DNA of 55,601 nt from an uncultured Candidatus Saccharibacteria bacterium (GTDB lineage: Bacteria > Patescibacteriota > Doudnabacteria > UBA920): contig CAYZEI010000006.1 in NCBI GenBank assembly GCA_964477745.1, positions 1-55,601 on the forward strand, written 5' to 3'. The stretch's first letter is position 1; every line of letters starts with the position of its first letter. A program made the position numbers and the translations under genes. The notes under the pieces were generated by a model, which saw nothing but the letters and a program-made list of their open reading frames with translations, searched no databases and was not told where the DNA came from. Below, in pieces: positions 10,999 to 52,708 of the stretch.

Positions 10999-11856
10999 CT
11001 AACTGAGTTTCTCGACAAGTCTAATCCAATCTTCAATCGATAATTCCTGCGGACGACTTGTGGGTTTTATTTTTAACTGGTTTAAAATTTCTAGGGCGCG
11101 AGCTTTATCCAATCCTAAATTATTTGTCATGGTGTTGTGAATTTGTTTTCGCTTGCCGGTAAAACACGCTTTGACAATTTTGAAGAATTTTTTTTCGTCC
11201 GCTAATTTATAGCGCGGAGTTTTGTCCAAAGTAATTTTTAAAATGGCACTGTCCACTTTTGGCGCCGGGTAAAAACTTCGAGCCAGTACCGGCGCGACTA
11301 ATTCGGGCACGCCGAACAGTTGAACGGAAATTGCCAACACCGAAAGATTCCCCGGCTTGGCACAAACATTTTGCGCCACTTCTTTTTGCGTTAAGATGGT
11401 TACACTCTCCGGTTTAATTTTTGCGTACATTAACATTTTTAAAATTTTGCCGGTAATGTAGTACGGGATGTTGGCCACGACTTTATAATTTAACTTACTC
11501 CCCTCTTCCAAGCGATCGCTGAAAACTTTCAAAAAATTAAATTCCAGAGCATCGGCAATTTCAAACCGAAAATTATCTTTAAAATCTTTTTTTACATTGT
11601 GTAAAATTTGAAAAAACTTTGGGTCTTTTTCCACGGACAATAAAAAACCTGCACGCTCAGCCAACACGCGAGTAAGATTACCTACCCCCGGACCGATTTC
11701 CAAAATGTTATCTTCTTTGGTGACCTTGGCCGCGTCGGCAATATCTTGCAAAACAAACTCGTCAATTAAAAAATTCTGGCCATAGGTAAAATTCGGCTTA
11801 ATGCCGTTATTGCGTAATAAACTTTTTAATTGTTCGACGTCCATATTTTTTCTCAT
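10999..11856 (-). CDS. rsmA: 16S rRNA (adenine1518/1519-N6)-dimethyltransferase
   Basis: 'YGQNFLIDEFVL' and the SAM motif 'ILEIGPGVGNLT' are present. An internal Met (MRKNMDVEQ) is preferred because the longer ORF runs into the upstream repeat element. Confidence 0.9.
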   Translation of the reverse strand: MRKNMDVEQLKSLLRNNGIKPNFTYGQNFLIDEFVLQDIADAAKVTKEDNILEIGPGVGNLTRVLAERAGFLLSVEKDPKFFQILHNVKKDFKDNFRFEIADALEFNFLKVFSDRLEEGSKLNYKVVANIPYYITGKILKMLMYAKIKPESVTILTQKEVAQNVCAKPGNLSVLAISVQLFGVPELVAPVLARSFYPAPKVDSAILKITLDKTPRYKLADEKKFFKIVKACFTGKRKQIHNTMTNNLGLDKARALEILNQLKIKPTSRPQELSIEDWIRLVEKLS

Positions 11857-11864
11857 ACAATTGA

Positions 11865-11932
11865 TTTTACGAAGTACGAAATTATACGAACTTACGAATT
11901 CGTACATTAGTACATATTCGTACTTCGTAAAG
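11865..11932. repeat. 68-nt TACGAA-word palindromic element (copy 1)
   Basis: It fills the uvrD-rsmA intercistronic gap, is centred on gaattc, and is 62/68 identical to 18390-18457. Confidence 0.95.
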
Positions 11933-11934
11933 AC

Positions 11935-17674: not shown

Positions 17675-18388
17675 TTAAATTCCCTTTAAATACACTTCCG
17701 ATTTTATTTTCCGTTCCAGCTGATATTCAATAAATTCCGACATTAAAGCCTGAAGTTGGCTTAATGACTGTGGGGAAAATTTTAATACTGCCACATCTGC
17801 CGGACGAGCGGTTTTTAATTGCAAAAATAGCTGGTACCCTTCCCAAGTAACCGTTACACCGCCCGGATTTGACGAAAAACCGCCTGATGCGGGGCTAAAA
17901 TACAGTCGTTGGTCAGAGTGAGCCTGTGGAGGATAATGAACCGCAAAACCCACAGTTTCTAAAGCGGATAGTTTAAACTTTAATAAACCCAAATCCAATA
18001 TTTCGACATTTGGACTTGAATTTAAAAATTCCAAAAAGCTTTCAAAAATAAAAAATAATTTTTCATTTTTTTGCTCATCGGCGGAAAATTTTAAAACAAA
18101 TTCCAAGGAATAAAAGGCATAGCGTAAACCCTCCAGATTTTCCCGTAAAGAAGAATAAGTTTTAACGGTTTCCACACCAATAACTTTAGGCAAAGTCCCG
18201 GTCGTGACCCGAACCTCCACAAAAAACAAAGCCTGCAATTTTTGTTGCAGTTTTGATTTAGCGCTCTTAACCGATTTCGCGAGCACGCGAACCTTCCCCT
18301 GTTCCTTGGTAAACAGAGTAATTATTTCGTCGGTATCACCGAAAGGCTGTTTTTTTAAAATAATGCCGGTGTATGTATTTTCTCTCAT
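17675..18388 (-). CDS. recO: DNA repair protein RecO
   Basis: The N-terminal OB-fold signature 'GIILKKQPFGDTDEIITLFTKEQGKVRVLAKSVKSAKSKL' is present, and the length (237 aa) fits. Confidence 0.85.
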   Translation of the reverse strand: MRENTYTGIILKKQPFGDTDEIITLFTKEQGKVRVLAKSVKSAKSKLQQKLQALFFVEVRVTTGTLPKVIGVETVKTYSSLRENLEGLRYAFYSLEFVLKFSADEQKNEKLFFIFESFLEFLNSSPNVEILDLGLLKFKLSALETVGFAVHYPPQAHSDQRLYFSPASGGFSSNPGGVTVTWEGYQLFLQLKTARPADVAVLKFSPQSLSQLQALMSEFIEYQLERKIKSEVYLKGI

Positions 18389-18389
18389 A

Positions 18390-18457
18390 TTTTACGAAGT
18401 ACTAAACTCTACGAACTTACGAATTCGTACTTTCGTATATATTCGTACTTCGTAAAG
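18390..18457. repeat. 68-nt TACGAA-word palindromic element (copy 2)
   Basis: It fills the ileS-recO intercistronic gap from stop to start codon. Confidence 0.95.
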
Positions 18458-18459
18458 TC

Positions 18460-21400
18460 TTATATTTTGATTATTCCCAACCAAATGGCTTTTCCGCCGA
18501 TCTCCGCTTGGATTTCAAAGTCTGCTTCCACTTCATAGCTTTTGGAAATTTGGCTGACAAAAGTTTTTTTCCGGTCTACCAATTTCAGCAAACAGCTTTC
18601 CAAGTTTTCATCTTGGGTATTGTAATATAAATCCACCAGCTCCCCTGGTTTAAGCCCGCTTTTTTTGCGCAAATCCTGAACCTGTCGTTCCAGCTCTCTG
18701 GCAGTTCCTTCCAGTTTTAATTCCGGTGTAAGGCGGGTATCAAGGTAAAAGTTTTCCACGGTTCCAACGCCGGGAACAATTATTATGCCGGTGTCCGGTC
18801 TTGAATCTTTATCTAATAAACTGGCATCGATTTCTTTAATATTTAACTCTTCCAAAATCAGTTTATTAAATTCTTCCGGCAAATTTGTGTCTTTTTGCTT
18901 AGATGAAAAAGCGATTGCGCGGAGTGGCTGGCGTACGGGTAAAGCTTTGTCTTTACGGATTGCCAAGCCCAAGGTGGAAACTTCACGCACTATATCCATT
19001 TTACTGAACACGTCCGACTCCACGGCAAACACAGACAAATTGGACCACGAAGCCAAATGTACGGATTCTTTGCCAGTCACGTCTTTATAAATAAAGTCGG
19101 CCAAAAACGGCATATATGGAGCCAGCATTTTACTGAGCTCGGCTAAAACATAACTTAAAGTTTCTCCGGCCTGCTTCCCTTCTTGCCCTTCCATTTTTAA
19201 ACGATCCCGGCTCCGGCGCAAATACCAAGTGGACAGGTCGTTAATAAAGTCCACCATATCTTTTCCGGCTTTGACCGTATTATATTCGTCCAAATAATTG
19301 GTAACTTTTCCGTGTAATTCAAATAGTTTGGCCAGTATCCAGCGGTCCAACACATGGTCTGAAGTGGGCTTACTTTCCGGCGCCGTGCCTTTGTAGTACA
19401 TGCGCAAAAAGCTCCAAACATTATAAAGCAACATATTAACTTTTCGGCTAATTTCCGAAACGCCTTTTTCGCTAAAATTAAAATCATCGCCGTTCATTAC
19501 CGGAGAGACCAATAAATAAAACCGAATCGGGTCAATGCCGAATTTTTCTATGAGGATGTTCGGGTCGGGAAAATTATTTTTGCTCTTGGACATTTTACTG
19601 CCGTCCTCGGCTAAAATATTTCCGGTGGTCACCACGTTCTTAAACGGGGCTTTTTCAAAAATGGTGGACGACACGGCATGCATGACATAAAACCAGGCGC
19701 GGGTTTGCGCAATATATTCGGCCACAAAATCCGCCGGGAATCTGGCTTTAAACAATTCCTTATTTTCGAACGGGTAATGCAGTTCGGCAAACGGCATAGA
19801 AGCGGACTCTACCCAGCAATCCACCACTTCCGGAACCCGGCTCATTTGTCCGCTACACTTTTCGCACTTTACTTTAACCCGGTCTATATAGGGACGATGC
19901 AGATCAATAGATTCAAGATTTAAAATTTCGGATTTTAGATCCTGGCCTCTTTCGGTTAAATCTTTAATCTTTAATCTTAAATCTTCTGATTCCGGGTATA
20001 CTTCTTGGAAGTTGGTTGATTTAGCAATTAATTCTCCAATCGAACCAATACAAACTACATCTCTACAGTCTTCCCGGTCGCATTTCCAAAACGGCAAAGC
20101 CGTAGCCCAAAATCGGTTGCGGGAAATATTCCAATCCGGCGCTTGCGCCATGCTGTTGCCGAACCGGCCGTGCTTTAAGTGCTCGGGGTACCAATTTATA
20201 TCTTCGTTATTTTTTATTAAATCTTGCTTAACCGATTGAATGTTAATAAACCAAGCAGGAAGTGCATTGTAAAACAACGGAGTGCCACAACGATAACAAT
20301 GCGGATAGGAGTGGGTATAGCTTTCGGTTTTATAAACTTTTCCGGTTTCGGTTAACTCTTTTAAAATAATTTTGTCGGCATTCTTAAAGAACACTCCGCG
20401 CAAATTTTCCGGCGCCATTTCCATATAATGGCCTTTGTGGTCCAACATATCCACGCGCGGTAAATTCTTGGCCTTGGCTAACTGATAATCTTCTTCACCA
20501 TACATAGCGGCATTATGCACAATCCCCGTACCATCGGTTGTGGTCACAAAATCGGCTATATAAATTTTATGAGCCCGGTTATTTGGGTCTGTAATTACTC
20601 CCGGATAAAGTGGCTCATAAGACAATCCTTCAATAGCGCGCGCCGGAAATTCCGCCACAGTTTCATAAGCGCCCTCAATTATGGACAGTCTATCTTTGGC
20701 TAAAATATAGCGCTCCCCATTTTCCTGTTCAATTAACACATAACGAATATCCCCGCCAATATTTAGCGAAGTATTTCCCGGCAAGGTCCAAGGTGTGGTG
20801 GTCCAGGCCAAGCAGTAAGTTTTATCGTTAGTAAGGTCGTTTATTATTCTTTGCCGAGGGGTCAGCCTAAACTTGGCGTACACCGATTCTTCGGTCACGT
20901 CTTTATAGCTGTTATCCATAGCCACTTCAAAATTAGAAATGGGAGTCTCACAGCGGGAACAATAAAGTAGAACTTTACGGTCTTCGTAAATTAACCCTTT
21001 ATTCCAAATTTGTTGCAAGGCCCACCAGACCGATTCCTGGTAACTGGTATCCATGGTCTTGTAGGAATTTTCAAAATCCACCCAGCGTCCCATTCGGCGC
21101 ACGGTTTTCCCCCACTCGTCGGCAAACTTAAGTACGTTGTCCCGACAGACTTTATTAAACCGGTCCACGCCTAGTTCTTCAATTTGTTTTTTGCCAGAAA
21201 TTTTTAAATTTTGCTCTACAATATTTTCAATTGGCAAGCCGTGACAATCCCAACCCCAACGCCTTCGGACAAACCGCCCCTTCATAGTTTGGTAACGCGG
21301 TATGGCGTCTTTTATAGTGGAAGCAAGAATGTGACCGTAATGCGGTAAGCCCGTAGCAAAAGGCGGACCGTCGTAAAAAATATACGGCTCATACGTCTTT

Positions 21401-32785: not shown

Positions 32786-35029
32786 TTAATTTTCTAAAAC
32801 TTCTTTGAACTTCCAAAAACGCCCGCCGCCTATGGGTATTAAGGAGTCGATTAAATCATAAGTTTGCTGCTTTGTAGTCGGGTTTTGGTATAAAATTTTT
32901 AACACCGTAAGTAACTCTTGGTCAATGTACATAGAGGCGTGGTGTTGTATGTCAAACTTATCCGGGTCACCAAGAAATAACCTTACAATTTCCAAAGTCT
33001 GCTCGGGAGACTCTAAAGCAAATTTATCAAGTAAGTGCATGAGGCCGTATTCCCATTCCAAATCTCCTTTAGTCTTCTGTAAAGTCCTTCTAACATGCTC
33101 TGCTAGCCATTGAGTGTCGAATATCTTATTTTCAGTACTTAGCCAATAACCGAATCCATTTAATATTTCTGGGGAAGAGATATTCTCAAGCGCCCAGTCC
33201 CACAGTTTTTTTAATTTTTCTATATCAATTTTTTGAGACTCAAACCAAATTCGATCCTTATCTTTAGAAAAGGCGTATCTTCCAATAAAGGAGAAAAATT
33301 CTTTTTGTCGCTTAGTATTTTCTTTACTCCAAAAATAAGTAAATAGTTGATTCTGAAAATCAAATTCTGGGAAATGAACAAACGCCAATGCTAAATGGGT
33401 AGCAAGGCCGTCGTCTATATCCTTAAAAGGTTTTCTTTTTTTGAATCCCGTATAATCTATCCCTCTTTTATATAAAGAAGTAAAGTTTTCGAACATTTCT
33501 TTATACACGTTCGTTGATAGATAGCCTTCCCAAGCAGCTAAATATAAGTCCTTTTTTGAAGGGTCTGTAGGGAATATTTTATCAATCAAATTTGTTATCC
33601 ATATTTGGTCACGAAAATAGTAGAAAGGTAAATAGTGACCAAACATAAATTTTATCGATTGTGTATTTTCTTTATCTAGGGTCTTTTCATATAGCGTTTT
33701 AATGTCCGCTGAAATCTTTAACTTTTTTTCCTTATCATTTTGTTTGCTATCTTGATAAACAAACAAATTGAATGCCTCAAATGCTCGACCCCTTACAGTA
33801 TTTATCGCTGTGGTAAAAAGATCGCTATCCTCGGGGGATTCGTCTTTAGGAACAGGATCGGGGTATTCAAGTAAGTAGTCTAAAATACTTAATAAAACAT
33901 CTCTGTTCTTACTGAAATCTAATTGGGGCTTATCGTCACCTCTAAGTAATTCTTGTAGGTCATCACTCATGGCACTATGAACGGCCCCCCAGTTTGATAG
34001 CCAAGAGAGGGTTGGTATTTTCTTACGTTTAGTTTTATCAAAAGGTTCTTCTTTTCCCGATTTAGTAATACTTTGAAACGTTTCTATTAAGTTATTCCAA
34101 TCAACATCTTGGGCAATCTTTTCCTTAATAGATTCTTGTATGCCTCTGAAAAATGAGTAGGTATAATGAGGGTCAACTTTCTGTCTATCAAAGAACAATT
34201 CAGAGTTATTAACATAGTCGGTTAACCTTTTTTTAATATCCATGCGCAAAGTTTCTGCTAATCCTTCTGCGTCCAGCGGATTATAAAAATTCTGTTCTTT
34301 ATCTAATTTAGGTAGATTTTCCGGTGACCATTCTTCTTTTAGTCTAGAAGCAATTTCAACAACAGGAATTGAATTAAATTCCTCAATTGAAACCGGGCCT
34401 TTGCTTCTAATAGAACCGGCTATACCACGGCTTATCGTAGGCGAAGGTTCGTAAGAAGCGTTGAGTGGTTGCTTAAACAATTTTTTAGCTTCATCCCTAT
34501 CTGCTTCTGATAAAAAATCATTTATGCTACATGCAATCGCCCAGCCGTAATGAGTTCGCCACTCTTCCTGGCCAGCTTCGCCAAAATGCTTAAATAAAGC
34601 AGTGATAAACTCTTTTTGTTTTACAGAATCAAAAATAGAAAAGACTTTTTTGATAGTCTTTTCATACTCCGTTCCCATAATTAAAACGGAAGCTTTTTTA
34701 TTTTCAAAAATCCTAAATAGCGCTTTCTCAAGCTCACTTTTAAAAATTTCTGGGCAAAGACTCATCACAAACAATCTAAGTCTCCACATAGACTGACTAT
34801 CGGGTAAAGATTTAATATACTTGTTATATAAATCCTTAACTAGCTTCGGGTTGTCGCATTTTTCACCTATTGCTTTTACAGACAGCAACTTAATAACAGC
34901 TGCTAAATCCCTCACGTCATCCCGGTAGGAAATATGTCGTTCATCGCCAATTTCAAGAGTAAAAAAGTCAACATCAAAAAGATAAAAGGTTTCGCCAATC
35001 AGTACTTGTTTTATCTCCAATAAGCACAA
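32786..35029 (-). CDS. large alpha-helical protein, unknown function (possibly the C-terminal part of a ~1000-aa frameshifted protein)
   Basis: 747-aa ORF with a TTG start in the track. It is helix-rich and W/F/Y/K-rich. It overlaps the upstream ORF by 56 nt in the +1 frame. Confidence 0.7.
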   Translation of the reverse strand: MCLLEIKQVLIGETFYLFDVDFFTLEIGDERHISYRDDVRDLAAVIKLLSVKAIGEKCDNPKLVKDLYNKYIKSLPDSQSMWRLRLFVMSLCPEIFKSELEKALFRIFENKKASVLIMGTEYEKTIKKVFSIFDSVKQKEFITALFKHFGEAGQEEWRTHYGWAIACSINDFLSEADRDEAKKLFKQPLNASYEPSPTISRGIAGSIRSKGPVSIEEFNSIPVVEIASRLKEEWSPENLPKLDKEQNFYNPLDAEGLAETLRMDIKKRLTDYVNNSELFFDRQKVDPHYTYSFFRGIQESIKEKIAQDVDWNNLIETFQSITKSGKEEPFDKTKRKKIPTLSWLSNWGAVHSAMSDDLQELLRGDDKPQLDFSKNRDVLLSILDYLLEYPDPVPKDESPEDSDLFTTAINTVRGRAFEAFNLFVYQDSKQNDKEKKLKISADIKTLYEKTLDKENTQSIKFMFGHYLPFYYFRDQIWITNLIDKIFPTDPSKKDLYLAAWEGYLSTNVYKEMFENFTSLYKRGIDYTGFKKRKPFKDIDDGLATHLALAFVHFPEFDFQNQLFTYFWSKENTKRQKEFFSFIGRYAFSKDKDRIWFESQKIDIEKLKKLWDWALENISSPEILNGFGYWLSTENKIFDTQWLAEHVRRTLQKTKGDLEWEYGLMHLLDKFALESPEQTLEIVRLFLGDPDKFDIQHHASMYIDQELLTVLKILYQNPTTKQQTYDLIDSLIPIGGGRFWKFKEVLEN

Positions 35030-36909: not shown

Positions 36910-37098
36910 GGCTTTATCCTTAGTTGATTAAAGCCGGCGCAGAAACACAAAGCCCCACGCCAGCCGGTCCCTTGCGGAACCCATACCCCTTTCGAGATAT
37001 GACTCGTTGAAAAGTTGCTGGACGTGAGGTCCAGTATTTTCAACGAGTTTTGCGTGCCATGCCCGGGCAGGTTGCTCGGGTTTAGGCATTCAGTTGTA
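36910..37098 (-). promoter_or_regulatory. GC-rich structured 5' leader (candidate cis-regulatory RNA) of the 76-aa gene
   Basis: An 18-bp interrupted hairpin pairs 'actcgttgaaaa..ctggac' with 'gtccag..ttttcaacgagt'. There is also a GCAA-capped hairpin, 'ggttccgcaagggacc'. The putative promoter TTGATA-17-TAAAAT lies at about 37102-37130 on the minus strand. Confidence 0.45.
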
Positions 37099-37752: not shown

Positions 37753-38007
37753 GTGAAACCAGCCCGCGTCAGTCAAAAATTGAAAACTAAAAAACTTAAC
37801 ACCCAATCTTCCGGCTTCAATTCGACCGAAGTTGAACCCGAGTTGTTAAAAGATTCGATCTCCGATAAAAGAATAAGCGAGTATAGGCAAATACTAAAAG
37901 ATAATCATAGCTCTGACGAACAGGTTAAAAAACGCTTAAGCTACCTTGAATCCCTATGCCACAATATTATAAGGCTTGAAATAATAAATTATCAAAATAA
38001 AAAATGA
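37753..38007 (+). CDS. small hypothetical protein upstream of the recombinase
   Basis: 84-aa ORF with a GTG start. Its stop overlaps the recombinase ATG (ATGA). Confidence 0.4.
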   Translation: MKPARVSQKLKTKKLNTQSSGFNSTEVEPELLKDSISDKRISEYRQILKDNHSSDEQVKKRLSYLESLCHNIIRLEIINYQNKK

Positions 38008-39620
38008 GTAAAGCAAGGAAAATAAGAATTATAAATGAAAATTACCCCTACACAAAAGCAATAATATATTGCCGTGTTTCTTCAGAGCGCCAAGTAAACG
38101 ACGGACATGGCTTAGATGGCCAAGGAGTTAGGTGCCATCAAAGAGCTGAATCACAAGGTCTTGAGGTGGTTAAGGTATTCCGTGAAGAAGGTGTGTCTGG
38201 AAAACTGTTTGACCGTCCGGCAATGGCGGAGCTTATAGGGTATTTAGACAATCATGCAAAAGATAGGTTTGTCATTATCTTCGACGACTTAAAACGCTTT
38301 GCGAGAGATTTGGAAGTTCATTTAAAATTGAAAGCGGAGTTAGTTACTAAACGAGGGGCAAAATTGGATTGTCTTAATTTCAATTTTGAAAACAGCCCGG
38401 TTGGTCGGGCAATAGAAAATATTATGGCGGCTACTGCACAATTAGAGCGCGAACAAAATGCAGAGCAAGTTATAAATAAAATGAAAGCACGATTAGAAAA
38501 AGGCTATTGGGCTTTTGGCCGCAGAAAAGGTTATGACATGGTTAAGAATCCTGTTCATGGTATGCTTTCTGTCCCAAACAAAGACGGACAAATATTAAAG
38601 GAAGCTTTAGAAGGTTTTGCAGCAGGGATTTATATCCGCAAAATTGATGTTTGCCGTTTTCTTTTACAGAAGCATTTTTGGAAGACACAAAAAGCCGAAA
38701 AATATATTGATAAAATAACCGATATAATGCGCGATCCTTTTTACGCTGGTCATATTGAATATTCTGCTTGGGAAGTCTCGCGCCGCAAAGGACATCATCA
38801 AGGTATTATTTCCCTTGAGACTTTTGATCTAATACAAAAACGCTTGCGTAAAGTTGACCTAAACCAGCGCATACGTCTTGATACATCGCCAGACTTCCCG
38901 TTGCGTGGAGTAATAATCCACGATGAGTGTAAAGGGCACCTTACGAGCGCCTGGTATCCCAATGGTAAGGGTAAGAAATACCGCAAATATGTTTGCCATA
39001 CTAAGGGTTGCCCAAGCTATAATAAACCTTTCTCCGCAGATGAAATGGAAAGCAAATTTGCAGAGGTTCTGAAAAAGGGAGCTGTAAAAAAGGAAACTGA
39101 TTTGATTTTAAAAAAAATATTTGATCAGGTTTGGGAAGATGAGGTGGCAAAAATAAAGGAGTCGGAGCAAAATTCAGAGCAACAAAAAAGAGCCCTTGAG
39201 AAAAGGCTCTCTGACCTTACAGATTTAATGCTAGCAGCTAAGTCCCCGGCGCTGAAGCGTAATTATGAAAAACAGTCAGTGAAAGCGGCTAGCGAAATTG
39301 AGACAATAGAGGGAAAATCAACGAATGGGATCGACCTAACTATCCCTTATCAAACCGCGTTAGAAAAGGCCACTATGTTGCTAAAAATGCCCTACATTGC
39401 TTGGAAAAAGCTCAATGTCCACGAACAGCACGCCTTGTTTTTTTTCTTTTTTCAGGAAAAACTTCCTTACTCTATAAAAGAGGGTTATCAAACCCATCAA
39501 ATTCCTTATGCTGCAAGGCTATTTGAAGATTTTGTAACCCAAAATACCCAATTGGTGGAGATGCCGGGAGTTAAACCCGGGTCCAAAACTAATTCACTTC
39601 CCAATTATTCACAAGATTAG
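38004..39620 (+). CDS. large serine recombinase
   Basis: The N-terminal resolvase catalytic motif is 'AIIYCRVSSERQVNDGHGLDGQ'. A recombinase domain, a Cys-rich zinc-ribbon region ('CKGHLTS...CHTKGC') and a coiled-coil C-terminus follow. 538 aa. Confidence 0.9.
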   Translation: MSKARKIRIINENYPYTKAIIYCRVSSERQVNDGHGLDGQGVRCHQRAESQGLEVVKVFREEGVSGKLFDRPAMAELIGYLDNHAKDRFVIIFDDLKRFARDLEVHLKLKAELVTKRGAKLDCLNFNFENSPVGRAIENIMAATAQLEREQNAEQVINKMKARLEKGYWAFGRRKGYDMVKNPVHGMLSVPNKDGQILKEALEGFAAGIYIRKIDVCRFLLQKHFWKTQKAEKYIDKITDIMRDPFYAGHIEYSAWEVSRRKGHHQGIISLETFDLIQKRLRKVDLNQRIRLDTSPDFPLRGVIIHDECKGHLTSAWYPNGKGKKYRKYVCHTKGCPSYNKPFSADEMESKFAEVLKKGAVKKETDLILKKIFDQVWEDEVAKIKESEQNSEQQKRALEKRLSDLTDLMLAAKSPALKRNYEKQSVKAASEIETIEGKSTNGIDLTIPYQTALEKATMLLKMPYIAWKKLNVHEQHALFFFFFQEKLPYSIKEGYQTHQIPYAARLFEDFVTQNTQLVEMPGVKPGSKTNSLPNYSQD

Positions 39621-40218
39621 CTAAGTTTAATACCTCTATGACAATAACTTAGCAAATAGTCATAAAGGGTAATTTACGTGTCTTAAGTTTGCGGGTGCAA
39701 ATCAAATCCGCAAACAGCAGTCCTGTATGAACCCGGGTGTCTAAAGTCAGGACGAACTTAAGGCCGGGATCTTAACTTAATAAATTAAGCTAAGACTGGT
39801 TGCAAGTCGGCGTTTTGAAACGCGGCTACAACTTTATTCCATGCGTTAGCATTTGTTTGTGTCCGAGGGATTTACGAGGCTTCAGACTGGCTCGTCTTGC
39901 ATATTAGAAAATGTCAAAGTCCTGTCAAAATCCGTCATCCCCAGTAGAATCACCTTGCAATTGTTCGCTGGTTTTCACCAACAATATTATCACAAGGAAA
40001 TGGATACCAAGAGATGGCCAATAGATTTAAATGCATATACACAGCTCACACTGTTGGTTTGCAAGGTAGCTCTACTGGGCATCCCCGTGGGCTCTATAAT
40101 ACCATAAAATTAGCCTTTTATCAATGCTCTAAGTTGGCTACTTATTATAAGTATAGGCAACAAATGGATCATATCTACATTATGATTCATTCCTTTGCCC
40201 ATTTTTGTTCGATTGATA

Positions 40219-41142
40219 TCATTTAGAAAGGTTTCCCGTTCTTCCATACATTCTCATGTATCTTTGTAATAACGTTTCGCTACCTATTTGCCTAGCCATT
40301 CGCATTATTTTTTCGCTGTGACATGATCTACAGACAGTTTTTAAATTACTTAAGCCATTACTCTTTCCATTTATGTGCTGAACAAAAAGATCCCTGCCAA
40401 ACTTCTCGTAGCTTTCTTCTTGAGTAAGCCCACAATTAGTGCATTTAAAGGCATCCCTTTCTAAAGCTTTTTGTCGATTACCATCAAAATTTAAATGGTC
40501 ATTTGCCTTTCTAAATCTTTCTTTGACTTCTGGCCGAGTTTTATATTCCTCCATATATTCTTTCATTTTTTTCTTCCTATCATCAATGTGCTTTAAAAAA
40601 GAAGTTCGTTGTACTTGTTTAAAATATGGGGATTTAGTATAACATCTCATACAATACCCTCTTATTTTGTGAGGTATGGAGCTAGTTTCACACATCTTGC
40701 ATTCCTCATAGTCTCTAGCCCATCTTTTTTCTTTTCCCATGTTAATTTTCTCAACAATTTCAGGGAAGTATTTTTTTAATAAAACTGAATCAACTCCTAT
40801 GGCTCTTGCGTAAGTACTTACACCAAAGAATTCGGAAGGATCTTGCAATACACTATTCTCCCTTATTTTAATTTCAATACATTCTTTCTCATTTTTAGAT
40901 CTCTGAATATATCTATCGAGTGCGATTTGTTTTATTTCTTCATGAGCTGCAATTTTTAACATTTTCCTGTCTTCTTGACTTAGATAGTAAGTAATATTCA
41001 AACTTGCCTTAATTTCGTTTTCCATTTGATTTACAACGATTTGTTGGATTCTGGATCTTGTAACTTTAAAAACCTTAGAAATTTCTTCCAAAGTTTTTCC
41101 ATTCTTATATAAATTTAAAATCTCCTCATTCCTATTAGACAT
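40219..41142 (-). CDS. HTH / zinc-ribbon / HNH endonuclease protein
   Basis: The N-terminal sigma-r4/LuxR-like HTH is 'GKTLEEISKVFKVTRSRIQQIV'. The zinc ribbon is 'CKMCE...CMRCY'. The C-terminal HNH is 'CTNCG...FVQHINGKSNGLSNLKTVCRSCHSEK'. Confidence 0.8.
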   Translation of the reverse strand: MSNRNEEILNLYKNGKTLEEISKVFKVTRSRIQQIVVNQMENEIKASLNITYYLSQEDRKMLKIAAHEEIKQIALDRYIQRSKNEKECIEIKIRENSVLQDPSEFFGVSTYARAIGVDSVLLKKYFPEIVEKINMGKEKRWARDYEECKMCETSSIPHKIRGYCMRCYTKSPYFKQVQRTSFLKHIDDRKKKMKEYMEEYKTRPEVKERFRKANDHLNFDGNRQKALERDAFKCTNCGLTQEESYEKFGRDLFVQHINGKSNGLSNLKTVCRSCHSEKIMRMARQIGSETLLQRYMRMYGRTGNLSK

Positions 41143-42022
41143 TTAGGTTATTTCTAATCTTGTATACTTCTAACAAACGGTCATCTTTTAAAGCATTTAC
41201 CATCTCTGCTAGATTTGTTATTTTATTGGCGGGCACTAATCTTCTGAATCTATTTCTAGTCTCAACATTCGATTTAAAGAGCACTAGGACCTTACTAACA
41301 AAATCAGCCCAAATCTTAGGTAACTTATTGTTCAATTCAATTTCTGGAACAAATAAATCTTCTTGGGTCAAAGCGGATACAAGCTGGGAAATATTATTCA
41401 AATATTCTCCCTTAGCAGTGGCACGGATGTTTTTAATATCTTTAATTTTGTTTAATTTGAGCAATTGAAAAATACTATTGTAGAAATCCACAAAAGCTTT
41501 TGAATAAGGTTCCATTTCTTTTAATTTCTGAGTCCGGGTATTTTTTATGCCTATTTTCTTGCTTTTTATGCCAATAATTTTTGACTTTATAACTCTAAGT
41601 GATTGATTTGAATTTAATAAAACCAATAATTCAGGATACTCCTTATTGGATAATTTAAATTTTGGATTTTCTAATAAAGGCAAAGCTTCTCTAAACAAGG
41701 AGTAAGAGATTAGCTTGGAGAATTGTCCTTTTATCTGGTTTTTACTTTCAAAGTATTTTTTAATCCTAAGACAATAACTTAAGAAGTCTCGTGTAATATA
41801 ACTCTTTTTAAGTCCTTCTGCTTTGCCATAAATCTGCCAATATAATTTATGCGGCTTATCGTCATGCTCTTTTAAATAATCTTCTAATTTCTTTCCAACT
41901 TCCCACATAATTTCTAAAACGCTGGCACCGCTTGCCCCACTATCAACAAGATCTCTGTACTTGTTATTGAGAGGCGTTATTTGTTCAATTAAATTTAAAA
42001 TGTTAATTTCGTTGTCTTTCAT
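41135..42022 (-). CDS. helical protein of unknown function
   Basis: 295-aa ORF with an 8-nt overlap downstream and a 20-nt overlap upstream. The N-terminus 'EIMWEVGKKL...YGKAEGLKKSYITRDFLSYCLRIKKYF' is only vaguely like the YhcG/DUF1016 N-domain. Confidence 0.65.
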   Translation of the reverse strand: MKDNEINILNLIEQITPLNNKYRDLVDSGASGASVLEIMWEVGKKLEDYLKEHDDKPHKLYWQIYGKAEGLKKSYITRDFLSYCLRIKKYFESKNQIKGQFSKLISYSLFREALPLLENPKFKLSNKEYPELLVLLNSNQSLRVIKSKIIGIKSKKIGIKNTRTQKLKEMEPYSKAFVDFYNSIFQLLKLNKIKDIKNIRATAKGEYLNNISQLVSALTQEDLFVPEIELNNKLPKIWADFVSKVLVLFKSNVETRNRFRRLVPANKITNLAEMVNALKDDRLLEVYKIRNNLNV

Positions 42023-43739
42023 AAGAGTTTATGTCCTTATTTTCAGTTTGACTTTCCAGACTGTTAAGGTTTTTATTTACCCACGGTTGTAGTACCGATT
42101 CTAAAAGATATTCACTATCCGTCAAATCATCAAATAGATCAGTTCTGCTGTTTAATATGGATTGGACTTCGGGCTGCTTTCCTCGCTTGTCAAAAAATTT
42201 ATCTTTAAACCTAATGGCCATTTGAGAAGCTAAGTAAGAAACAAGACGATAGGTAAGTATACGTTCTCCATATCGGTTTACGTGGGCACGTTCCTGAAAG
42301 TCAGGGTGAGTGCTATAGATTACGATCCCTTCGCCCTCGATAAATTGCGACCTTAATGAGGTGCCATCCGCCTTCTTTTGTTCTCTGTCTGAAAATTTTA
42401 CTGGAAAACCACTCTTCTTCTTTTCTTGGCCTTTAAGATCTGTATCGTCATCAGTTTTAATAACAGGAACATCATCGGTTTTGTCTGTTTCTGTTTCATT
42501 ATTTCCGAAGCCTCCGCCCGATTTTTTCTCAAAAAGTAAATCGGAAATATCTGACTCGGACACATTAATATCATCTCCCTGAGTGAGCTCGGTTTTAAAC
42601 TTCAAATTGTATTGGCGAGCGAGTTTTGCTAAAGCCGCTGATAGAATATCCTCTAGTTTACCCATTCCAGTATCAGCAGATTTTTTATTGATTTGGACTA
42701 ACTCTTCGAAAATTTCATCTTCAAAAGACAAAATTTTATCATAAACCATGCTTCTATTTTCCGATCTCTGGAAGTCGTCTCTCGGTAAAGTTGGACTTAT
42801 TAAACCCGCTATATCAATATAGCCAGTCAAATTAGAATGACCCCATAATTGCGAACCATATTTTGACTTATTTCTAAAAGACTTAATACTCTGTATTTCT
42901 TCAATTCTCCGGCCTTTGTTAACAAATATTGGCCTCTTACTCGGTATAATGTCCTCGGTAATCTTTAAATACACTTTTAATGGTAAATCTAATTTTGTAT
43001 TCGTAGTTACCCCTCTTCTCGTACTTGCCAATTCATTAATCTCTTTCTGAACTTTTTTACCAAGAAAATTATCATAATTAAAAGGCTGGCAAATTTCTTC
43101 TTCATTTCCAAAAATAACTTTTATTTCTAAATCTTGCCTAGCTAGGAGTTGTTCAAAATGTTTTTCTATTTCTTCCTTTAGAACTTGTGGATCCACTTCA
43201 TTCCACCAATCCTTTTTAAAACCGCTTATGGTGACTAAGGTTCCTGACTCAAAAGGAAATTTATTTTTAGATAACCTTTTCTCATCTTCTACATCCAAGG
43301 TATTGCTAAAAAGTTCAATATACAAACAATGGTCCATTTCTTTCTGAACCGTGGTAATAGACATCTTATCAGCGCAAGCCATATAAGCGTGAGCGCCGAA
43401 ACCAAACTGACCGTTTAACCAAGAAACGGTCTTTTTATTTGACTTCCCTATACTAGTTACGATAGCCAGGAGTCCATCTTTCCATACACCTTCTTTGGTT
43501 TTTATACCCTTACTCATACCTACACAGTTGTCTGCAAAAGAAACCGTCTTATTTTTAGGATCGATTGTGACTGAAATCTTTATAGGATAAGGATATTTGC
43601 CATATTGATTATAAAGGGTCTCGGCACTATCAAGAGAGTTGTCAATATACTCCATAAATATTCGCATACTGTGTTGGTATATATTGGCTACTTGATTTAG
43701 AAATTCGTTTGTGTCGGCTATAGTTTTTTTATATGGCAT
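42003..43739 (-). CDS. GHKL-superfamily (HATPase_c_3 / MORC-like) ATPase
   Basis: The Bergerat-fold motifs are the N-box 'MEYIDNSLDS', G1 'FADNCVGMS' and G2 'GQFGFGAHAY'. The Met at 43739 is preferred because it removes the overlap with the 76-aa ORF. Confidence 0.8.
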   Translation of the reverse strand: MPYKKTIADTNEFLNQVANIYQHSMRIFMEYIDNSLDSAETLYNQYGKYPYPIKISVTIDPKNKTVSFADNCVGMSKGIKTKEGVWKDGLLAIVTSIGKSNKKTVSWLNGQFGFGAHAYMACADKMSITTVQKEMDHCLYIELFSNTLDVEDEKRLSKNKFPFESGTLVTISGFKKDWWNEVDPQVLKEEIEKHFEQLLARQDLEIKVIFGNEEEICQPFNYDNFLGKKVQKEINELASTRRGVTTNTKLDLPLKVYLKITEDIIPSKRPIFVNKGRRIEEIQSIKSFRNKSKYGSQLWGHSNLTGYIDIAGLISPTLPRDDFQRSENRSMVYDKILSFEDEIFEELVQINKKSADTGMGKLEDILSAALAKLARQYNLKFKTELTQGDDINVSESDISDLLFEKKSGGGFGNNETETDKTDDVPVIKTDDDTDLKGQEKKKSGFPVKFSDREQKKADGTSLRSQFIEGEGIVIYSTHPDFQERAHVNRYGERILTYRLVSYLASQMAIRFKDKFFDKRGKQPEVQSILNSRTDLFDDLTDSEYLLESVLQPWVNKNLNSLESQTENKDINSYERQRN

Positions 43740-43743
43740 AGAT

Positions 43744-43974
43744 TTAAAATGTGAAATGCTTGTGCTTTTTAGGATAGTGGAATTTGGACTTGGTCTCTTT
43801 GACGGACCGTTCAATCTCCGCGAACATCTTATTTACTTCTTCTTCATTGTACTCGTAAGCACTTCTATTTGAGCAATTACTGAGCACTTTTAATTTTTTT
43901 AGAACTTCATTTGTTCTATATGCTCCTAACCGTTTAAAACGTTCTCTTTTGTTGTCTGAAATTTCTTTTGTCAT
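43744..43974 (-). CDS. small basic protein, first gene of the GHKL/HNH operon
   Basis: 76-aa ORF that ends 4 nt before the ATPase start. Confidence 0.5.
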   Translation of the reverse strand: MTKEISDNKRERFKRLGAYRTNEVLKKLKVLSNCSNRSAYEYNEEEVNKMFAEIERSVKETKSKFHYPKKHKHFTF

Positions 43975-44093
43975 AGATTTGCAATTTTATAATAGTAAGT
44001 ATATAATTCTAATGTAAGGATATATCATATTTATACCATTGTCAAGATCCTTATATATGTATATAATCTAATAATAAAATAAGCTTCTAACAA
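43975..44093. promoter_or_regulatory. divergent control region between the two candidate defence modules
   Basis: Two direct copies of 'gtatataat(t)ctaat', each containing TATAAT, lie at 43999-44013 and 44059-44072. They flank the inverted repeat 'taaggat'/'atcctta'. Confidence 0.5.
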
Positions 44094-44882
44094 ATGTACA
44101 ATTTACTCCCCACCCTAAGTCCACAGGACCAGTATCTTCAAGGGATTCTTTCTAAATATAAAGCGGTTCACCCACTTTTAAATCCCCAATTAAATTTAGC
44201 CCAACAGCAAGTAGTTTCTCATATAAAAAATTGGTCGGGAAACCAACTCAGTTCGATAATACTATCGGGGTCCAACGCAAAAGGAACAGCATTGGTAACG
44301 TCTGCTGATGTTGATTTATTTATTTCTTTAAAACCTACTACCGTTGAAAATCTAAGAGAGCTTTATAATAAGCTTGATACAAGGCTTAAAGATTTAGGCT
44401 ATTCAACCTTGCGTCAAAACGTGTCGATTGGCATATATCATAATCACTATAAATTTGACCTTGTGCCAGCAAAGCTACAGCCAGGCCTTACTTCAAACCA
44501 CTCGATATACAAAAGAAAGCAGGATTCTTGGCAACAAACAAATATACATAAACACATTTCGGTAGTGAAAAATTCAGGTAGAATTAATGAAATATTGTTG
44601 GCGAAAAGATGGAGAGAAATTCACAACTTCGAATTTCCATCATTATATGTGGAATTGACCGCCATAGACGCATTAACCGGCTTCAGGATTGGTGATGTGG
44701 CAAATAACTTTTGGCGGTTATTAACTTATTTATCAAATAAATTCATTAGTTCTAGGGTAATCGACCCTGGAAATACAAATAATGCGATCTCAGACGATTT
44801 AACTCTGCAGGAAAAACTCCTAATTTCAAATCAAGCAAAAGCAGACTTACAAAAACAACATTGGGAAAAAATAATTTGGTAA
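44094..44882 (+). CDS. pol-beta superfamily nucleotidyltransferase (SMODS / CD-NTase-like)
   Basis: 'LSGSNAKGTALVTSADVDLF' gives the GS...DxD motif, with the third acidic residue in 'KFDLVPA'. The C-terminal half is helical. 262 aa. Confidence 0.75.
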   Translation: MYNLLPTLSPQDQYLQGILSKYKAVHPLLNPQLNLAQQQVVSHIKNWSGNQLSSIILSGSNAKGTALVTSADVDLFISLKPTTVENLRELYNKLDTRLKDLGYSTLRQNVSIGIYHNHYKFDLVPAKLQPGLTSNHSIYKRKQDSWQQTNIHKHISVVKNSGRINEILLAKRWREIHNFEFPSLYVELTAIDALTGFRIGDVANNFWRLLTYLSNKFISSRVIDPGNTNNAISDDLTLQEKLLISNQAKADLQKQHWEKIIW

Positions 44883-44887
44883 CAAAT

Positions 44888-45634
44888 ATGAGCAAAAATA
44901 AGATCGATATCAAGACAATTTTCTCTGGCCTCCAACAACAAATGGAAGCCCGCCTAACGCTAAATAAAAAGGTTATAAAACACCCAACTACCAAAGGAGA
45001 CGCTTCGGAGTTAGAATGGGCAGATATGTTATCTGTATATTTACCCAAACGATACTGTATTGATAAGGCCTTCGTTATTGATTATGAAGGGAATGTGAGC
45101 GAACAAATCGATTTAGTAATTTTTGACAGACATTATTCACCTTTTATATTAAAACAAAATGGGGCAATCTATTTACCCGCTGAATGTATCTACGCAGTAA
45201 TTGAAATTAAACCAGATTTATCATTATCCCACTTAAAATATGCTGCAAAAAAAGCTACCTCAGTAAGAAAACTAAAAAGAACAACTGCTACTATCGTCCA
45301 AGCAGATAACCAGAAATTTAAACAAAAAGACCCCCCAAAAATATTAGCGGGAATTCTTACTTTAAATGGAAACTTATCGGTTGGTATGAAACAATATCTT
45401 CAAAACCTTAAGGAAGAGAATCGGCTTAATTTTGGGTGTTCCTTATCTGGGGTGCTTTTTACTCAAACTAACTATGACCCCTACGAGGTTGGCGATGTAA
45501 CTTATGAGTTTAAGACTCTGAAAGATAATCCAAATAGCCTAATTTTATTCTTTCTGAACTTACTTCAAGAATTGAGGAAAATGGGGACAGTCCCTGCAAT
45601 GGACTTAGAAAAATATATAAAAAATATAAAATAA
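44888..45634 (+). CDS. PD-(D/E)xK restriction-endonuclease-fold protein (DUF6602-like)
   Basis: 'KGDASELEW...LP..Y', 'QIDLVIFD' and 'IYAVIEIK' give an E...D...ExK arrangement. About 120 aa at the C-terminus are unassigned. The ATG lies 5 nt after the NTase stop. Confidence 0.7.
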   Translation: MSKNKIDIKTIFSGLQQQMEARLTLNKKVIKHPTTKGDASELEWADMLSVYLPKRYCIDKAFVIDYEGNVSEQIDLVIFDRHYSPFILKQNGAIYLPAECIYAVIEIKPDLSLSHLKYAAKKATSVRKLKRTTATIVQADNQKFKQKDPPKILAGILTLNGNLSVGMKQYLQNLKEENRLNFGCSLSGVLFTQTNYDPYEVGDVTYEFKTLKDNPNSLILFFLNLLQELRKMGTVPAMDLEKYIKNIK

Positions 45635-45644
45635 CTAGCACGTT

Positions 45645-45705
45645 TATAAATCTAAATGGGGACATGACCCATTTAGGCTTTTTTGTACAAAGTTATTTAT
45701 TCACC
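45645..45705. repeat. direct repeat copy A (terminator hairpin + TTTTTTGTACAAAG + TTATT-ATT-AC)
   Basis: It is roughly 90% identical over its ~45-nt core (about five differences) to 47765-47822. It contains the hairpin aaatggg/cccattt plus a T-tract, which is the terminator of the nuclease gene. Confidence 0.8.
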
Positions 45706-45710
45706 ATAAA

Positions 45711-45765: not shown

Positions 45766-47697
45766 CTAACGGGTTACTGTGGTAGTGGCCACCGCCCCGC
45801 TCAGCGTTGGGAGGTTTGAATCTCCATACGCTAGCGGAATGGTATAGCCAATCGGTACCACGAATGCCGTCACCATATCGGCTTCTTCGTCGACACCTCC
45901 GGTGTCGATGTCGCAGATAAAACTTCCATCTGCATTTATTGTTGTTCCAGGGGAACTCCAATATGGTTTTGTCCACCACCATCCGCGAACGCGGATGTAG
46001 ACCGCGACCTGGTAGTCACTCGGCAGTACGTGCAGGACCGTTCCTGCAACGCTCCCATTGAGTGCATACCTTGGGGTTACAGATGTGAACTGGATGGATG
46101 CCTTGCCCGGTCCACCAGGGATGGGGTTAGGCGTTGGTGTGGGAGTTGGCGTCGGCGTTGGAGTGGGAGTTGGCGTGGGGTTTGGACCGGGTGCTGGAGT
46201 TTGAACAGGAACCGTTGGGCTCCAGTTGTCCGGAATGGTCTTACCGGAAAACACATCCAACATACCAGGTTTCAAATTCCCTTCCGAATCAAGTACTCCC
46301 CAGTTCTTTCCTTGCGGACCTTCATACCGCTCCTTCCACGGTTCGTCGTACGCTTCAAAGTAGAAGTATTTGACGTTCCGTGCACGCGCCCAAGACACAA
46401 AGTTCAAAAAGTACTGAGACGCATTCCTGGCGGAAGGCACCGCAGTATTGATGGTGTTGCCGGCACTCGGCCAACCGGTTTCGGAAACGATGATCTCCTT
46501 ATTCGGGTACTTGGCCTTGAGTTTTTCGTAGTTGGAATTGAGAGATATCATCGCCTCTTCAATTTTCGTCCCCTCCCAGTATGGGTAGGAGTTGAAGAGA
46601 ACTACGTCGCTTACGGCAACCACTTCCGGGTGGTCGTAGAGCGAAGCGAAGGTGTCAGCCGTGGCGACGATCGCCCCCGGAGCAGACTGCTTAACCCATG
46701 AAATATACGTGGCGAGTTGCGGGCCGGTAAGGTCCCGGCGATACAGCGTCTCCGAACCGACAATCAGCATCCCACCATAGCCGGCTTTGTAAGACGCAAG
46801 CATACTTTGAAGTTCCAGATCGTTGGCCTGGCTGTTGTTGTTTAACCAAGCACTGAGAACTGCTTTGACTCCATAGCGCTTGCAAATCTTCCCAAACATC
46901 TCCATGCCGTTGGTGTTGCCGTAGGCGCGAAGCCACTGAGTATATGGAGCGAGCCGACTAATCCGCTCGTCCAGTTGCTCTTCGCTTACTACAAAGCCCG
47001 TAGCCGGATCCTGAGTTCCGATGTACGGACCAAAGTCCAGCCCGTGCAAAACATAACTGACCGGCGTGCCCACCGTAAACGAGATTGGGTTGGACTCGTC
47101 GCCCGTGGTGAACCGGAGCCACTCCACCCAACCTCCTTCGGAGGTTTTGGGGAATGCCCCAGACAAGTACCACGCGCCCTTGTCGTCCGTCTTGCCAAGG
47201 CTTTGGCAGGAATAAGCACTTGCTCCTTGCGAAGCGCAGTGCTCAACCAAGGCATTCGGGATTCCACCGGTGTACTTGAGTATCCAACCTTGGTTGGGGG
47301 TAAAGTTGCCCCCGACCGAATTGTTTATCGTGAGTGTCCCCAAGGTGGGAACGCTAACGGTAAAAGCAATCCTGTTGGACGTTGCGCCGGATGGAAATTC
47401 CATCCATTGCACCCAGGTGCCTTCCGTGCCGGGGGTGAACGTCCCTGTGGCTTTCCAGACGCCCTTGGCGTCCGTTTTGCCAAAATTCGGCACGCATAGG
47501 GGTACGCGATCCCGAATTTCGCAGTAGGTGAACACCGCATCTGAATGCGGGCTCACGAGTTCGAGCGTCCAGGCTTGCCCCTTGGCAAAACCGCCACCGA
47601 CTCCACCGTTAATGGTCAAACTCCCGTTGATAACGGGAGCGCCATAGAGACTGACCGCCATAGTTATGACAGCCAGAATGCCTCTGACTTTCTGCAT
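45766..47697 (-). CDS. secreted glycoside hydrolase family 17 (beta-1,3-glucanase-like) with two N-terminal ~95-aa repeats, a Pro-Thr linker and a C-terminal beta-rich domain
   Basis: 'KEIIVSETGWPSAG' matches the GH17 nucleophile signature. The signal peptide is 'MQKVRGILAVITMAVSLYGAP' after the SD 'aaggaggg'. The linker is 'PNPTPTPTPTPTPTPTPNP'. Confidence 0.85.
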   Translation of the reverse strand: MQKVRGILAVITMAVSLYGAPVINGSLTINGGVGGGFAKGQAWTLELVSPHSDAVFTYCEIRDRVPLCVPNFGKTDAKGVWKATGTFTPGTEGTWVQWMEFPSGATSNRIAFTVSVPTLGTLTINNSVGGNFTPNQGWILKYTGGIPNALVEHCASQGASAYSCQSLGKTDDKGAWYLSGAFPKTSEGGWVEWLRFTTGDESNPISFTVGTPVSYVLHGLDFGPYIGTQDPATGFVVSEEQLDERISRLAPYTQWLRAYGNTNGMEMFGKICKRYGVKAVLSAWLNNNSQANDLELQSMLASYKAGYGGMLIVGSETLYRRDLTGPQLATYISWVKQSAPGAIVATADTFASLYDHPEVVAVSDVVLFNSYPYWEGTKIEEAMISLNSNYEKLKAKYPNKEIIVSETGWPSAGNTINTAVPSARNASQYFLNFVSWARARNVKYFYFEAYDEPWKERYEGPQGKNWGVLDSEGNLKPGMLDVFSGKTIPDNWSPTVPVQTPAPGPNPTPTPTPTPTPTPTPTPNPIPGGPGKASIQFTSVTPRYALNGSVAGTVLHVLPSDYQVAVYIRVRGWWWTKPYWSSPGTTINADGSFICDIDTGGVDEEADMVTAFVVPIGYTIPLAYGDSNLPTLSGAVATTTVTR

Positions 47698-47764
47698 AGG
47701 GCCCTCCTTAGGGGACTTCATTATAGTACAAACAGGACACCTACTCAAATCCTAAATTTAGGGA

Positions 47765-47822
47765 AAAAATAAAATGGAGCCTGGCCCATTTTAGGTTTTT
47801 TGTACAAAGCTATTCATTGACA
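47765..47822. repeat. direct repeat copy B
   Basis: 'aaaatggagcctggcccattttaggttttttgtacaaagctattcattgaca'. It runs into the TTGACA -35 of the next gene. Confidence 0.8.
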
Positions 47823-47845
47823 ATACCACAGAAATGTGGTATTTT
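47817..47845 (+). promoter_or_regulatory. sigma70-type promoter
   Basis: TTGACA - 17 nt - TATTTT, with TGn immediately upstream of the -10. Confidence 0.65.
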
Positions 47846-51945: not shown

Positions 51946-52708
51946 AACTCCAAAACTTCGGCCTCCTCAAATAAATATTTTTGACGTGCTTGATAAACAC
52001 TTGCCCAAACTGAAAAATGGGGATGTGTTATTTATTGCCTCCAAAATTTTAGGTCTACACCAAGGGCGAACAAAAAAAATAGGTGACGGAAAAAATAAAC
52101 ACCAACTAATATTGCAGGAAGCGGATTACTGTATGCCCAAGCATACTGTGGCCGGTACTGACATTGTCCTGACCATAAAAGACCATACATTAATCCCCTC
52201 TGCCGGCATAGATGAAAGCAACGGCGAGGGCTACTATATTTACTGGCCTAAAAATACCAATCTGCTAGCCAAACAAATTACCAACTATTTAAAAAAGAAA
52301 TTTAAATTAAAAAAACTGGCTGTCATAGTTACCGATAGCCACACCACCCCGCTAAGATGGGGTACGCTCGGTATTAGCATTGGATTTTGGGGACTTGAAC
52401 CCAACTTTGATTACCGCGGAAAAAAAGACATTTTTTCACGGAAATTAAAATATACTCAAAGCAATATTGTAGACGCGCTTTCCGCTATGGCAGTTTTACT
52501 TATGGGCGAAGGCAACGAACAAACTCCTATGGTTATTGGGCGAGATATAAAATTTATTAAATTTACCGCTAAAAATACTTACAATAAATTTATTATTGAC
52601 CCGGAAAAAGATTTATACTTTCCAATTTTAAAACAATTCTCCGCCAGAGGCGGATCCGCCTCTGGCGGAAAAAAAGTTAAAAAATTATCACAAATGAGAA
52701 GTTTATAA
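51926..52708 (+). CDS. CofE-like (F420-0:gamma-glutamyl ligase family) protein
   Basis: 'IPSAGIDESNG', 'AVIVTDSHTTPLRWGTLGISIGFWGL' and 'DALSAMAVLLMGEGNEQTPMVI' are present. TTG start overlapping yhhQ. Confidence 0.8.
   Translation: MQFLKVKTPKLRPPQINIFDVLDKHLPKLKNGDVLFIASKILGLHQGRTKKIGDGKNKHQLILQEADYCMPKHTVAGTDIVLTIKDHTLIPSAGIDESNGEGYYIYWPKNTNLLAKQITNYLKKKFKLKKLAVIVTDSHTTPLRWGTLGISIGFWGLEPNFDYRGKKDIFSRKLKYTQSNIVDALSAMAVLLMGEGNEQTPMVIGRDIKFIKFTAKNTYNKFIIDPEKDLYFPILKQFSARGGSASGGKKVKKLSQMRSL
52640..52669. repeat. 30-nt perfect GC-rich palindrome inside the CofE-like CDS
   Basis: 'tccgccagaggcggatccgcctctggcgga' is identical to 10692-10721. Here it is translated as 'SARGGSASGG'. Confidence 0.95.

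Follow-up and report, generated by a model that had tools for sequence, protein, structure and literature searches.

A cyclase–NucC gene pair with the features of a compact type I CBASS operon in a Candidatus Saccharibacteria contig

The CD-NTases that are associated with NucC belong to the clades C01, C03 and D05, and it was proposed that all of them make the cyclic tri-AMP signal cAAA (cA3) (Lau et al., bioRxiv 694703). Among these clades, it is C01 and D05 that go together with HORMA/Trip13 (Ye et al.). The sensor of NucC is neither a SAVED nor a CARF domain, but a three-fold allosteric cAAA pocket that is formed by elements embellishing the restriction-endonuclease fold. The type I operon XpCdnC03-NucC was listed as functional in E. 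coli, where it restricts dsDNA phages (Richmond-Buccola et al., bioRxiv 2023.05.21.541620), and the cyclases EcCdnC, BcCdnD and PaCdnD were all reported to be cA3 synthases (PMC13424991).

Here we describe a pair of adjacent genes in a stretch of 55,601 nucleotides from an uncultured Candidatus Saccharibacteria bacterium, referred to as the window in the following. We assign a probability of roughly 0.87 to the reading that these two genes by themselves form a type I CBASS operon directed against phages, in which a cyclase would signal by cAAA to the nuclease NucC and thereby cause abortive infection.

The locus and its cyclase

The pair and its flanking signals have the following layout:

44039..44067, + strand, promoter-like site TTGTCA-17-TATAAT, 27 nt upstream of the cyclase ATG
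44094..44882, + strand, cyclase ORF of 262 aa with ATG start and TAA stop (44880-44882)
44888..45634, + strand, NucC ORF of 248 aa with ATG start
45651..45687, + strand, terminator-like hairpin (10-bp stem, 7-nt loop) with a CTTTTTTGTA tail, 17 nt past the NucC stop

The gap between the cyclase TAA and the NucC ATG at 44888 amounts to 5 nt. In-frame TTG codons at 44861 and 44876 are alternative starts of the NucC ORF, and the N-termini of homologs back the ATG at 44888. The two ORFs, the gap, the motif numbering and the peptide strings quoted in the original prediction, which had been made from the letters of the sequence, were all confirmed as described. Judged by such signals the putative operon appears to have a promoter-like site in front and a terminator-like hairpin behind it; the promoter-like site agrees with 11 of 12 consensus positions, which is a consensus match only, and this consensus may not be the promoter type of the host. 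The first of the copies of a 61-nt direct repeat (repeat family D5) is formed by the same hairpin.

The cyclase matches the PADLOC model PDLC00803 (CBASS oligonucleotide cyclase) with an E-value of 5.2e-79, residues 11-262 aligning to positions 3-253 of the 253 model positions, and it passes the cut-off of the Pfam family SMODS (33.4 bits, cut-off 26.5), one of the families that the original prediction had named for HMM searches. The scores for the NCBIfam families CBASS_cyclase_a and CBASS_cyclase_b were 54.4 and 35.5 bits with cut-offs of 200, and equivalog status failed in both cases. Because these scores are far under the cut-offs, the protein does not appear to be an equivalog of the curated longer cyclases, which would leave its membership in the superfamily unaffected. 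A database search revealed a coherent family of ~250-aa proteins with 37-52% identity and a median length of 254 aa. The length of 262 aa is therefore normal for this family, and the view that the nucleotidyltransferase is atypically short is not supported, considering also its full-length match to the PADLOC model of 253 positions.

The string 'LSGSNAKGTALVTSADVDLF' holds G59-S60 and D72-x-D74, and 'KFDLVPA' holds D122. In an alignment of 34 family sequences G59, K63, T65, D72, D74 and D122 are invariant, and G59, D72, D74 and D122 are kept in 78-79 of the 79 homologs from genomes. The XGSX motif of the cyclase consists of S58-G59-S60-N61. Its first residue is Ser in 77 and Thr in 2 of 79 family members, Ser being the state that was reported for cA3 makers (PMC13424991), and the second X, N61 in the window cyclase, varies across the family.

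The AlphaFold2 model of the cyclase, built on the family alignment, reached a pLDDT of 92.6 and a pTM of 0.87 and contains no disordered segment. When this model was compared to the PDB with Foldseek, EcCdnC from E. coli MS115-1 (6p80/6u7b) came out on top with E ~1e-12 and TM scores of 0.71-0.75, at a sequence identity of only ~19-20%. Among the best 50 matches the CD-NTases showed TM scores of 0.58-0.79, and the lowest E-value was that of EcCdnC. The predicted fold, a pol-beta N-lobe with a helical C-lobe, is that of a CD-NTase and is closest to E. coli CdnC. In agreement with this, the family profile matched the PDB sequences of EcCdnC (1.5e-13), BcCdnD from B. cereus (1.6e-13) and PaCdnD from P. 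aeruginosa (4e-10), so that CdnC and CdnD are the nearest characterised relatives of the cyclase.

The original prediction had also considered an action of the MNT/HEPN or AbiEi/AbiEii kind, in which the nucleotidyltransferase would modify a protein or a tRNA as part of a toxin-antitoxin pair and no diffusible signal would be made. A weak generic match to Pfam NTP_transf_2 (5.7e-5) is all that speaks for it, and this signal is common to all pol-beta nucleotidyltransferases. Neither this reading nor an identity of the cyclase as KNTase or antibiotic nucleotidyltransferase, a candidate that we rejected, found family support, since searches of Pfam, NCBIfam and PADLOC matched no family of the AbiEii, KNTase, HEPN or antibiotic-NTase kind. 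In fold and profile the protein is nearest to CD-NTases instead, and its conserved partner, a cAAA-gated nuclease, is neither HEPN nor AbiEi. We regard the toxin-antitoxin or nucleotidylation reading as effectively refuted and give it next to no credence.

The NucC effector and its gate loop

The second protein matches the PADLOC model PDLC00745 (Effector, Endonuclease NucC) over residues 3-247 with an E-value of 3.7e-83. E-values of 5e-79 for the cyclase and 4e-83 for NucC rule out chance for the family matches, and the proposal of a signal synthase with a nuclease effector of the CBASS/SMODS kind was borne out by both PADLOC models together with SMODS. In Pfam only DUF6602, which had also been named beforehand, was found, on residues 26-129. 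A phmmer search against PDB sequences aligned residues 8-247 of 248 to five solved NucC structures with E-values from 1e-38 to 7e-43:

7zgv (Serratia), E 6.6e-43
6p7o (E. coli), E 2.1e-41
6p7p (E. coli), E 9.7e-41
6q1h, E 1.5e-39
6uxf (Vibrio metoecus), E 1e-38

An N-terminal half with a restriction-endonuclease fold had been read from the strings 'ELEW', 'QIDLVIFD' and 'AVIEIK', all of which are found in the second protein; the protein is a full-length NucC in which the D/E/K site is kept. The description of the C-terminal ~120 aa as unassigned holds for Pfam only, while the PADLOC model and the NucC structures in the PDB cover the protein up to residue 247. The C-terminal half is the rest of the solved NucC fold with the T234/V235 ligand contacts, and because it is part of this fold and carries known contacts, it does not represent a new sensor domain. 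Such a domain, which had been suggested as a new ligand sensor, was rejected, since the NucC structures align up to residue 247. Likewise, the effector does not lack a known sensor, but is a NucC with the known cAAA pocket.

The roles of individual residues were taken from Lau et al. (bioRxiv 694703) and transferred by the phmmer alignment to the PDB sequences. Conservation was counted in 73 NucC sequences, comprising 72 cyclase-linked homologs and the one of the window:

Active site, Ec D73, window D75, kept in 73/73
Active site, Ec E104, window E106, kept in 73/73
Active site, Ec K106, window K108, kept in 72/73
cAAA contact, Ec R53, window R55, kept in 72/73
cAAA contact, Ec Y81, window Y83, kept in 72/73
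cAAA contact, Ec T226/V227, window T234/V235, T kept in 72/73

The IDx30EAK motif is present in the window NucC as I74-D75, 30 residues and E106-I107-K108, with A replaced by I. By these comparisons the catalytic site of the cyclase as well as the nuclease site and the cyclic tri-AMP contacts of NucC are intact.

The gate loop deviates from the family. Residues ~137-146 of the window NucC read VQADNQKFKQ, the family consensus is PHAGGTY-xP, and in the closest relatives the loop is VHAGGRIEKP or VHAAGEIKKP. Where the consensus has 'AGGTY' the window protein has 'ADNQKF', so that the GG pair is changed to DN. The latch residues Ec H136 and Y141 are not kept, their places being taken by Q138 and F144. 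In E. coli NucC, mutation of H136 or Y141 abolished cAAA-activated cleavage (bioRxiv 694703). The latch His is present in 55 of the 73 sequences, and since 18 of them lack it, the latch is not universal; Q138 is unique among the 73.

Without the latch His activation might in principle fail, as in the inactive H136 mutant of EcNucC (bioRxiv 694703), and the pair could thus be a decaying or inactive CBASS remnant that has lost signalling and cutting. However, both ORFs are full length with all catalytic residues intact, the promoter-like and terminator-like signals are intact as well, and the His is missing from a quarter of the family members (18/73). Moreover, the identical cyclase with the same neighbours recurs on three other metagenome contigs and comes from three or four independent metagenome samples. 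We consider a remnant very improbable.

The CBASS could also use another signal, such as a different cyclic tri- or dinucleotide (e.g. cAAG), or its gate loop could alter specificity, affinity or threshold. The unusual loop with the unique Q138 and the change from GG to DN would fit this idea, as would the variable second X of the XGSX motif (N61), and we found no measured product in the literature for the ~250-aa cyclase family. Against it stand the conserved adenine- and phosphate-reading residues Y83, T234/V235 and R55, the Ser at the first XGSX position as in cA3 makers, and the nearest characterised cyclases, which are all cA3 producers. The proposal of Lau et al. of cAAA for all NucC-associated CD-NTases (bioRxiv 694703) argues in the same direction. 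An altered signal or gating is therefore rather improbable in our view, albeit less so than a remnant, and by analogy we infer cAAA as the product of the window cyclase.

Conservation and context of the gene pair

For a survey of the pair, one genome per species was scanned with the cyclase family alignment as query. The same scan with the single cyclase sequence gave zero matches and succeeded only with the family alignment, which detected relatives in 274 species genomes from many bacterial phyla and Bathyarchaeia. A NucC homolog adjoins the cyclase in 72 of the 80 loci that were kept; in 70 of them it follows the cyclase on the same strand, nearly always at a distance of ≤68 nt. The remaining 8 loci have no NucC and comprise orphans, a frameshifted copy, or cyclases with other adjacent genes. 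They look like cases of effector exchange, which is commonly described for CBASS. When all flanking ORFs of the 72 loci were clustered, no third conserved gene was found, the biggest family being HsdR-like and present at 6 of 72. Many phyla have inherited cyclase and NucC together as one operon, without accessory genes. The original prediction had listed clustering of the cyclase with KNTase or antibiotic nucleotidyltransferases, loss of the D/E/K residues and lack of synteny elsewhere as findings that would speak against it; we observed no such clustering, conserved D/E/K residues and synteny in 72/80 loci.

With E≤1e-30 as limit, a search of 1.84 billion representative proteins yielded 453 cluster representatives, nearly all of them 248-270 aa long. 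In RefSeq the plasmid-borne members are labelled only as 'nucleotidyltransferase' and 'DUF6602 domain-containing protein'. Both proteins nevertheless belong to families that were described before, and because they match existing PADLOC-DB models end to end, the family of short cyclases with NucC was catalogued as CBASS by 2023.

The window is chromosomal, as it carries ileS, argS, a pcrA/uvrD-type helicase gene and ssrA. Around the pair the GC content is low (30-36% over 40-45 kb), and a segment of 49-54% GC lies beside this stretch. Pfam and PADLOC revealed no HORMA, TRIP13, Cap2/Cap3 or other CBASS accessory genes among the window neighbours. Since Cap2/Cap3, HORMA/TRIP13 and type IV accessory genes as well as a conserved third gene are missing, the operon is assigned to type I. 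Two further candidates from the neighbourhood were rejected: a regulator like CapW, CapH or CapP, since the divergent 76-aa ORF does not recur along with the pair, and a functional link to the nearby GHKL-ATPase/HNH operon, as the pair has no conserved flanking gene.

Type III CRISPR loci are also known to carry NucC homologs (bioRxiv 694703), and the window NucC could accordingly serve a type III CRISPR-Cas system as accessory nuclease, with the nucleotidyltransferase as an unrelated neighbour. However, the 55.6-kb window contains no CRISPR-like interspaced repeat array, no Cas proteins were found among the neighbours and the large ORFs scanned in it, and the cyclase-NucC operon is kept in 70/80 loci. 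A CRISPR accessory role is hardly conceivable under these circumstances, and the type I CBASS operon remains the preferred reading.

Proposed signalling and comparison with known systems

By analogy to the described systems (bioRxiv 694703), a cue that arises during phage infection would switch on the cyclase, which would then join three ATP to 3',3',3'-cyclic tri-AMP (cAAA). Each NucC trimer would take up one cAAA in the three-fold pocket at its base, and its gate loops would shut over the ligand. Two trimers would subsequently assemble into a hexamer with juxtaposed active sites, which is expected to cut dsDNA with little sequence preference. Destruction of host and phage DNA would kill the infected cell before phage release, resulting in abortive infection.

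The ~250-aa cyclases have neither HORMA partners nor an AGS-C domain, and the cyclase model contains no low-confidence loop that would be a candidate for a protease-cleaved activation loop. These proteins may be stripped-down, accessory-free cA3 synthases with a distinct way of infection sensing, and the gate loop of the window NucC may alter ligand or threshold, but we consider this combined reading unlikely, if slightly less so than an altered signal or gating. If accessory-free cA3 synthesis of this kind were true, the mechanism of infection sensing would be distinct from the known ones. As a compact model, the family could help to study infection sensing by a HORMA-less clade-C cyclase, and the window locus adds no special leverage to this. 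What the analysis provides is that a pair of "nucleotidyltransferase + DUF6602" can confidently be named a type I CBASS with CdnC-like cyclase and NucC, which has little meaning beyond annotation, and that the cyclase-NucC pair is a widespread self-contained module that is under-annotated in RefSeq.

The cyclase family most likely corresponds to the CD-NTase sub-clade C03, which is HORMA-less and NucC-associated, a placement made by matching descriptions and not by a reference phylogeny. XpCdnC03-NucC is one of the closest described systems. It and the window pair are two-gene operons with a CdnC-like cyclase followed by NucC, and both are devoid of HORMA/TRIP13 and Cap2/3, a likeness by operon description and not by sequence identity; they differ in the gate loop of the window NucC, which has no latch His. 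The PADLOC-DB models PDLC00803 and PDLC00745 match both window proteins end to end, whereas the naming in RefSeq is generic.

The type III CBASS of E. coli MS115-1 consists of CdnC, HORMA, Trip13 and NucC (6p80, 6p7o), and its CdnC is the best structural and profile match of the window cyclase. The NucC proteins of the two systems are homologous over their full length (E 2e-41) and share active site and cAAA contacts, and the signalling logic from cAAA to the NucC hexamer and DNA cutting is presumed to be the same. The window cyclase is ~60 aa shorter than the MS115-1 CdnC (262 versus 321 aa), which carries additional loop insertions as well as a tail at the C-terminus. While MS115-1 possesses the regulators HORMA and Trip13, the window locus has neither of them, and therefore the control of activation must differ between both systems. 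The NucC proteins associated with type III CRISPR (6uxf of V. metoecus, 7zgv of Serratia) belong to the same effector family and are activated by cA3. Their signal derives from Cas10, whereas the window NucC, in a locus without CRISPR-Cas, would receive its signal from a dedicated CD-NTase.

Neighbourhood of the CBASS pair

Upstream of the CBASS pair (cyclase and NucC, plus strand) and in divergent orientation to it lies a four-gene operon on the minus strand (40219-43974), whose gene starts and stops overlap:

43744..43974, minus strand: 76-aa ORF
42003..43814, minus strand: GHKL ATPase of ~580-600 aa (Pfam HATPase_c_3, 6e-6)
41135..42022, minus strand: 295-aa protein without matches
40219..41142, minus strand: HTH and HNH nuclease protein

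Matches of the ATPase to the Hsp90/HtpG N-domain are weak (7e-8). PADLOC gave no strong match to any of the four genes, and its only matches for the HTH-HNH protein were weak ones to ZorE and DpdF (E ~1e-4). The same arrangement recurs on three further metagenome contigs, and it is not kept alongside the cyclase-NucC pairs of the other loci. We propose that these genes may constitute an uncharacterised defence operon of a MORC/GHKL-plus-HNH type.

On the 3' side of the CBASS operon, the GC content rises abruptly from ~35% to ~52% at the boundary marked by a direct repeat of 61 nt. Its two copies, at 45648-45708 and 47765-47825, are 75% identical, and the first contains the terminator hairpin of the operon. 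Between both copies a GC-rich gene (52-54%) is located on the minus strand (45766..47748); its product is a GH17-like glycosidase that includes a PT-rich linker.

Cyclase loci without NucC and further repeats

NucC is absent from 8 of the 80 homologous cyclase loci (L005, L015, L052, L057, L064, L067, L070 and L079). At some of these the end of another gene abuts the cyclase start, for example that of an 837-aa protein (L052), a 445-aa NTase-like protein (L067) or a 185-aa membrane protein (L079); L005, with a second CD-NTase-like gene and a 498-aa protein, also belongs to these examples. The cyclase of L070 is frameshifted and set amid transposase-like genes.

Two further repeat families occur in the window. 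A 74-nt direct repeat (family D2; 11864-11937 and 18389-18462, 91% identity), rich in nested TACGAA/TTCGTA palindromes, immediately precedes two genes of the minus strand, 10999..11907 and 17675..18388, and may function as an operator or regulatory element common to both. The 31-nt near-perfect palindrome TCCGCCAGAGGCGGATCCGCCTCTGGCGGAA (family D4) is present in two identical copies 42 kb apart (10692-10722 and 52640-52670).

The ssrA region

The segment 32786-39942 comprises the following features:

39553..39942, minus strand: tmRNA gene ssrA (Rfam, 137 bits)
38004..39620, plus strand: large serine recombinase gene
36966..37088, minus strand: LOOT RNA (RF03000, 90 bits)
32786..35029, minus strand: 747-aa ORF

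The recombinase gene overlaps the tmRNA gene, sharing 68 nt with its 3' end. Altogether, this region looks like an element integrated at ssrA and carrying defence cargo, the 747-aa ORF matching the C-terminal region of the defence protein Dsr1 (PADLOC, 1.5e-25).
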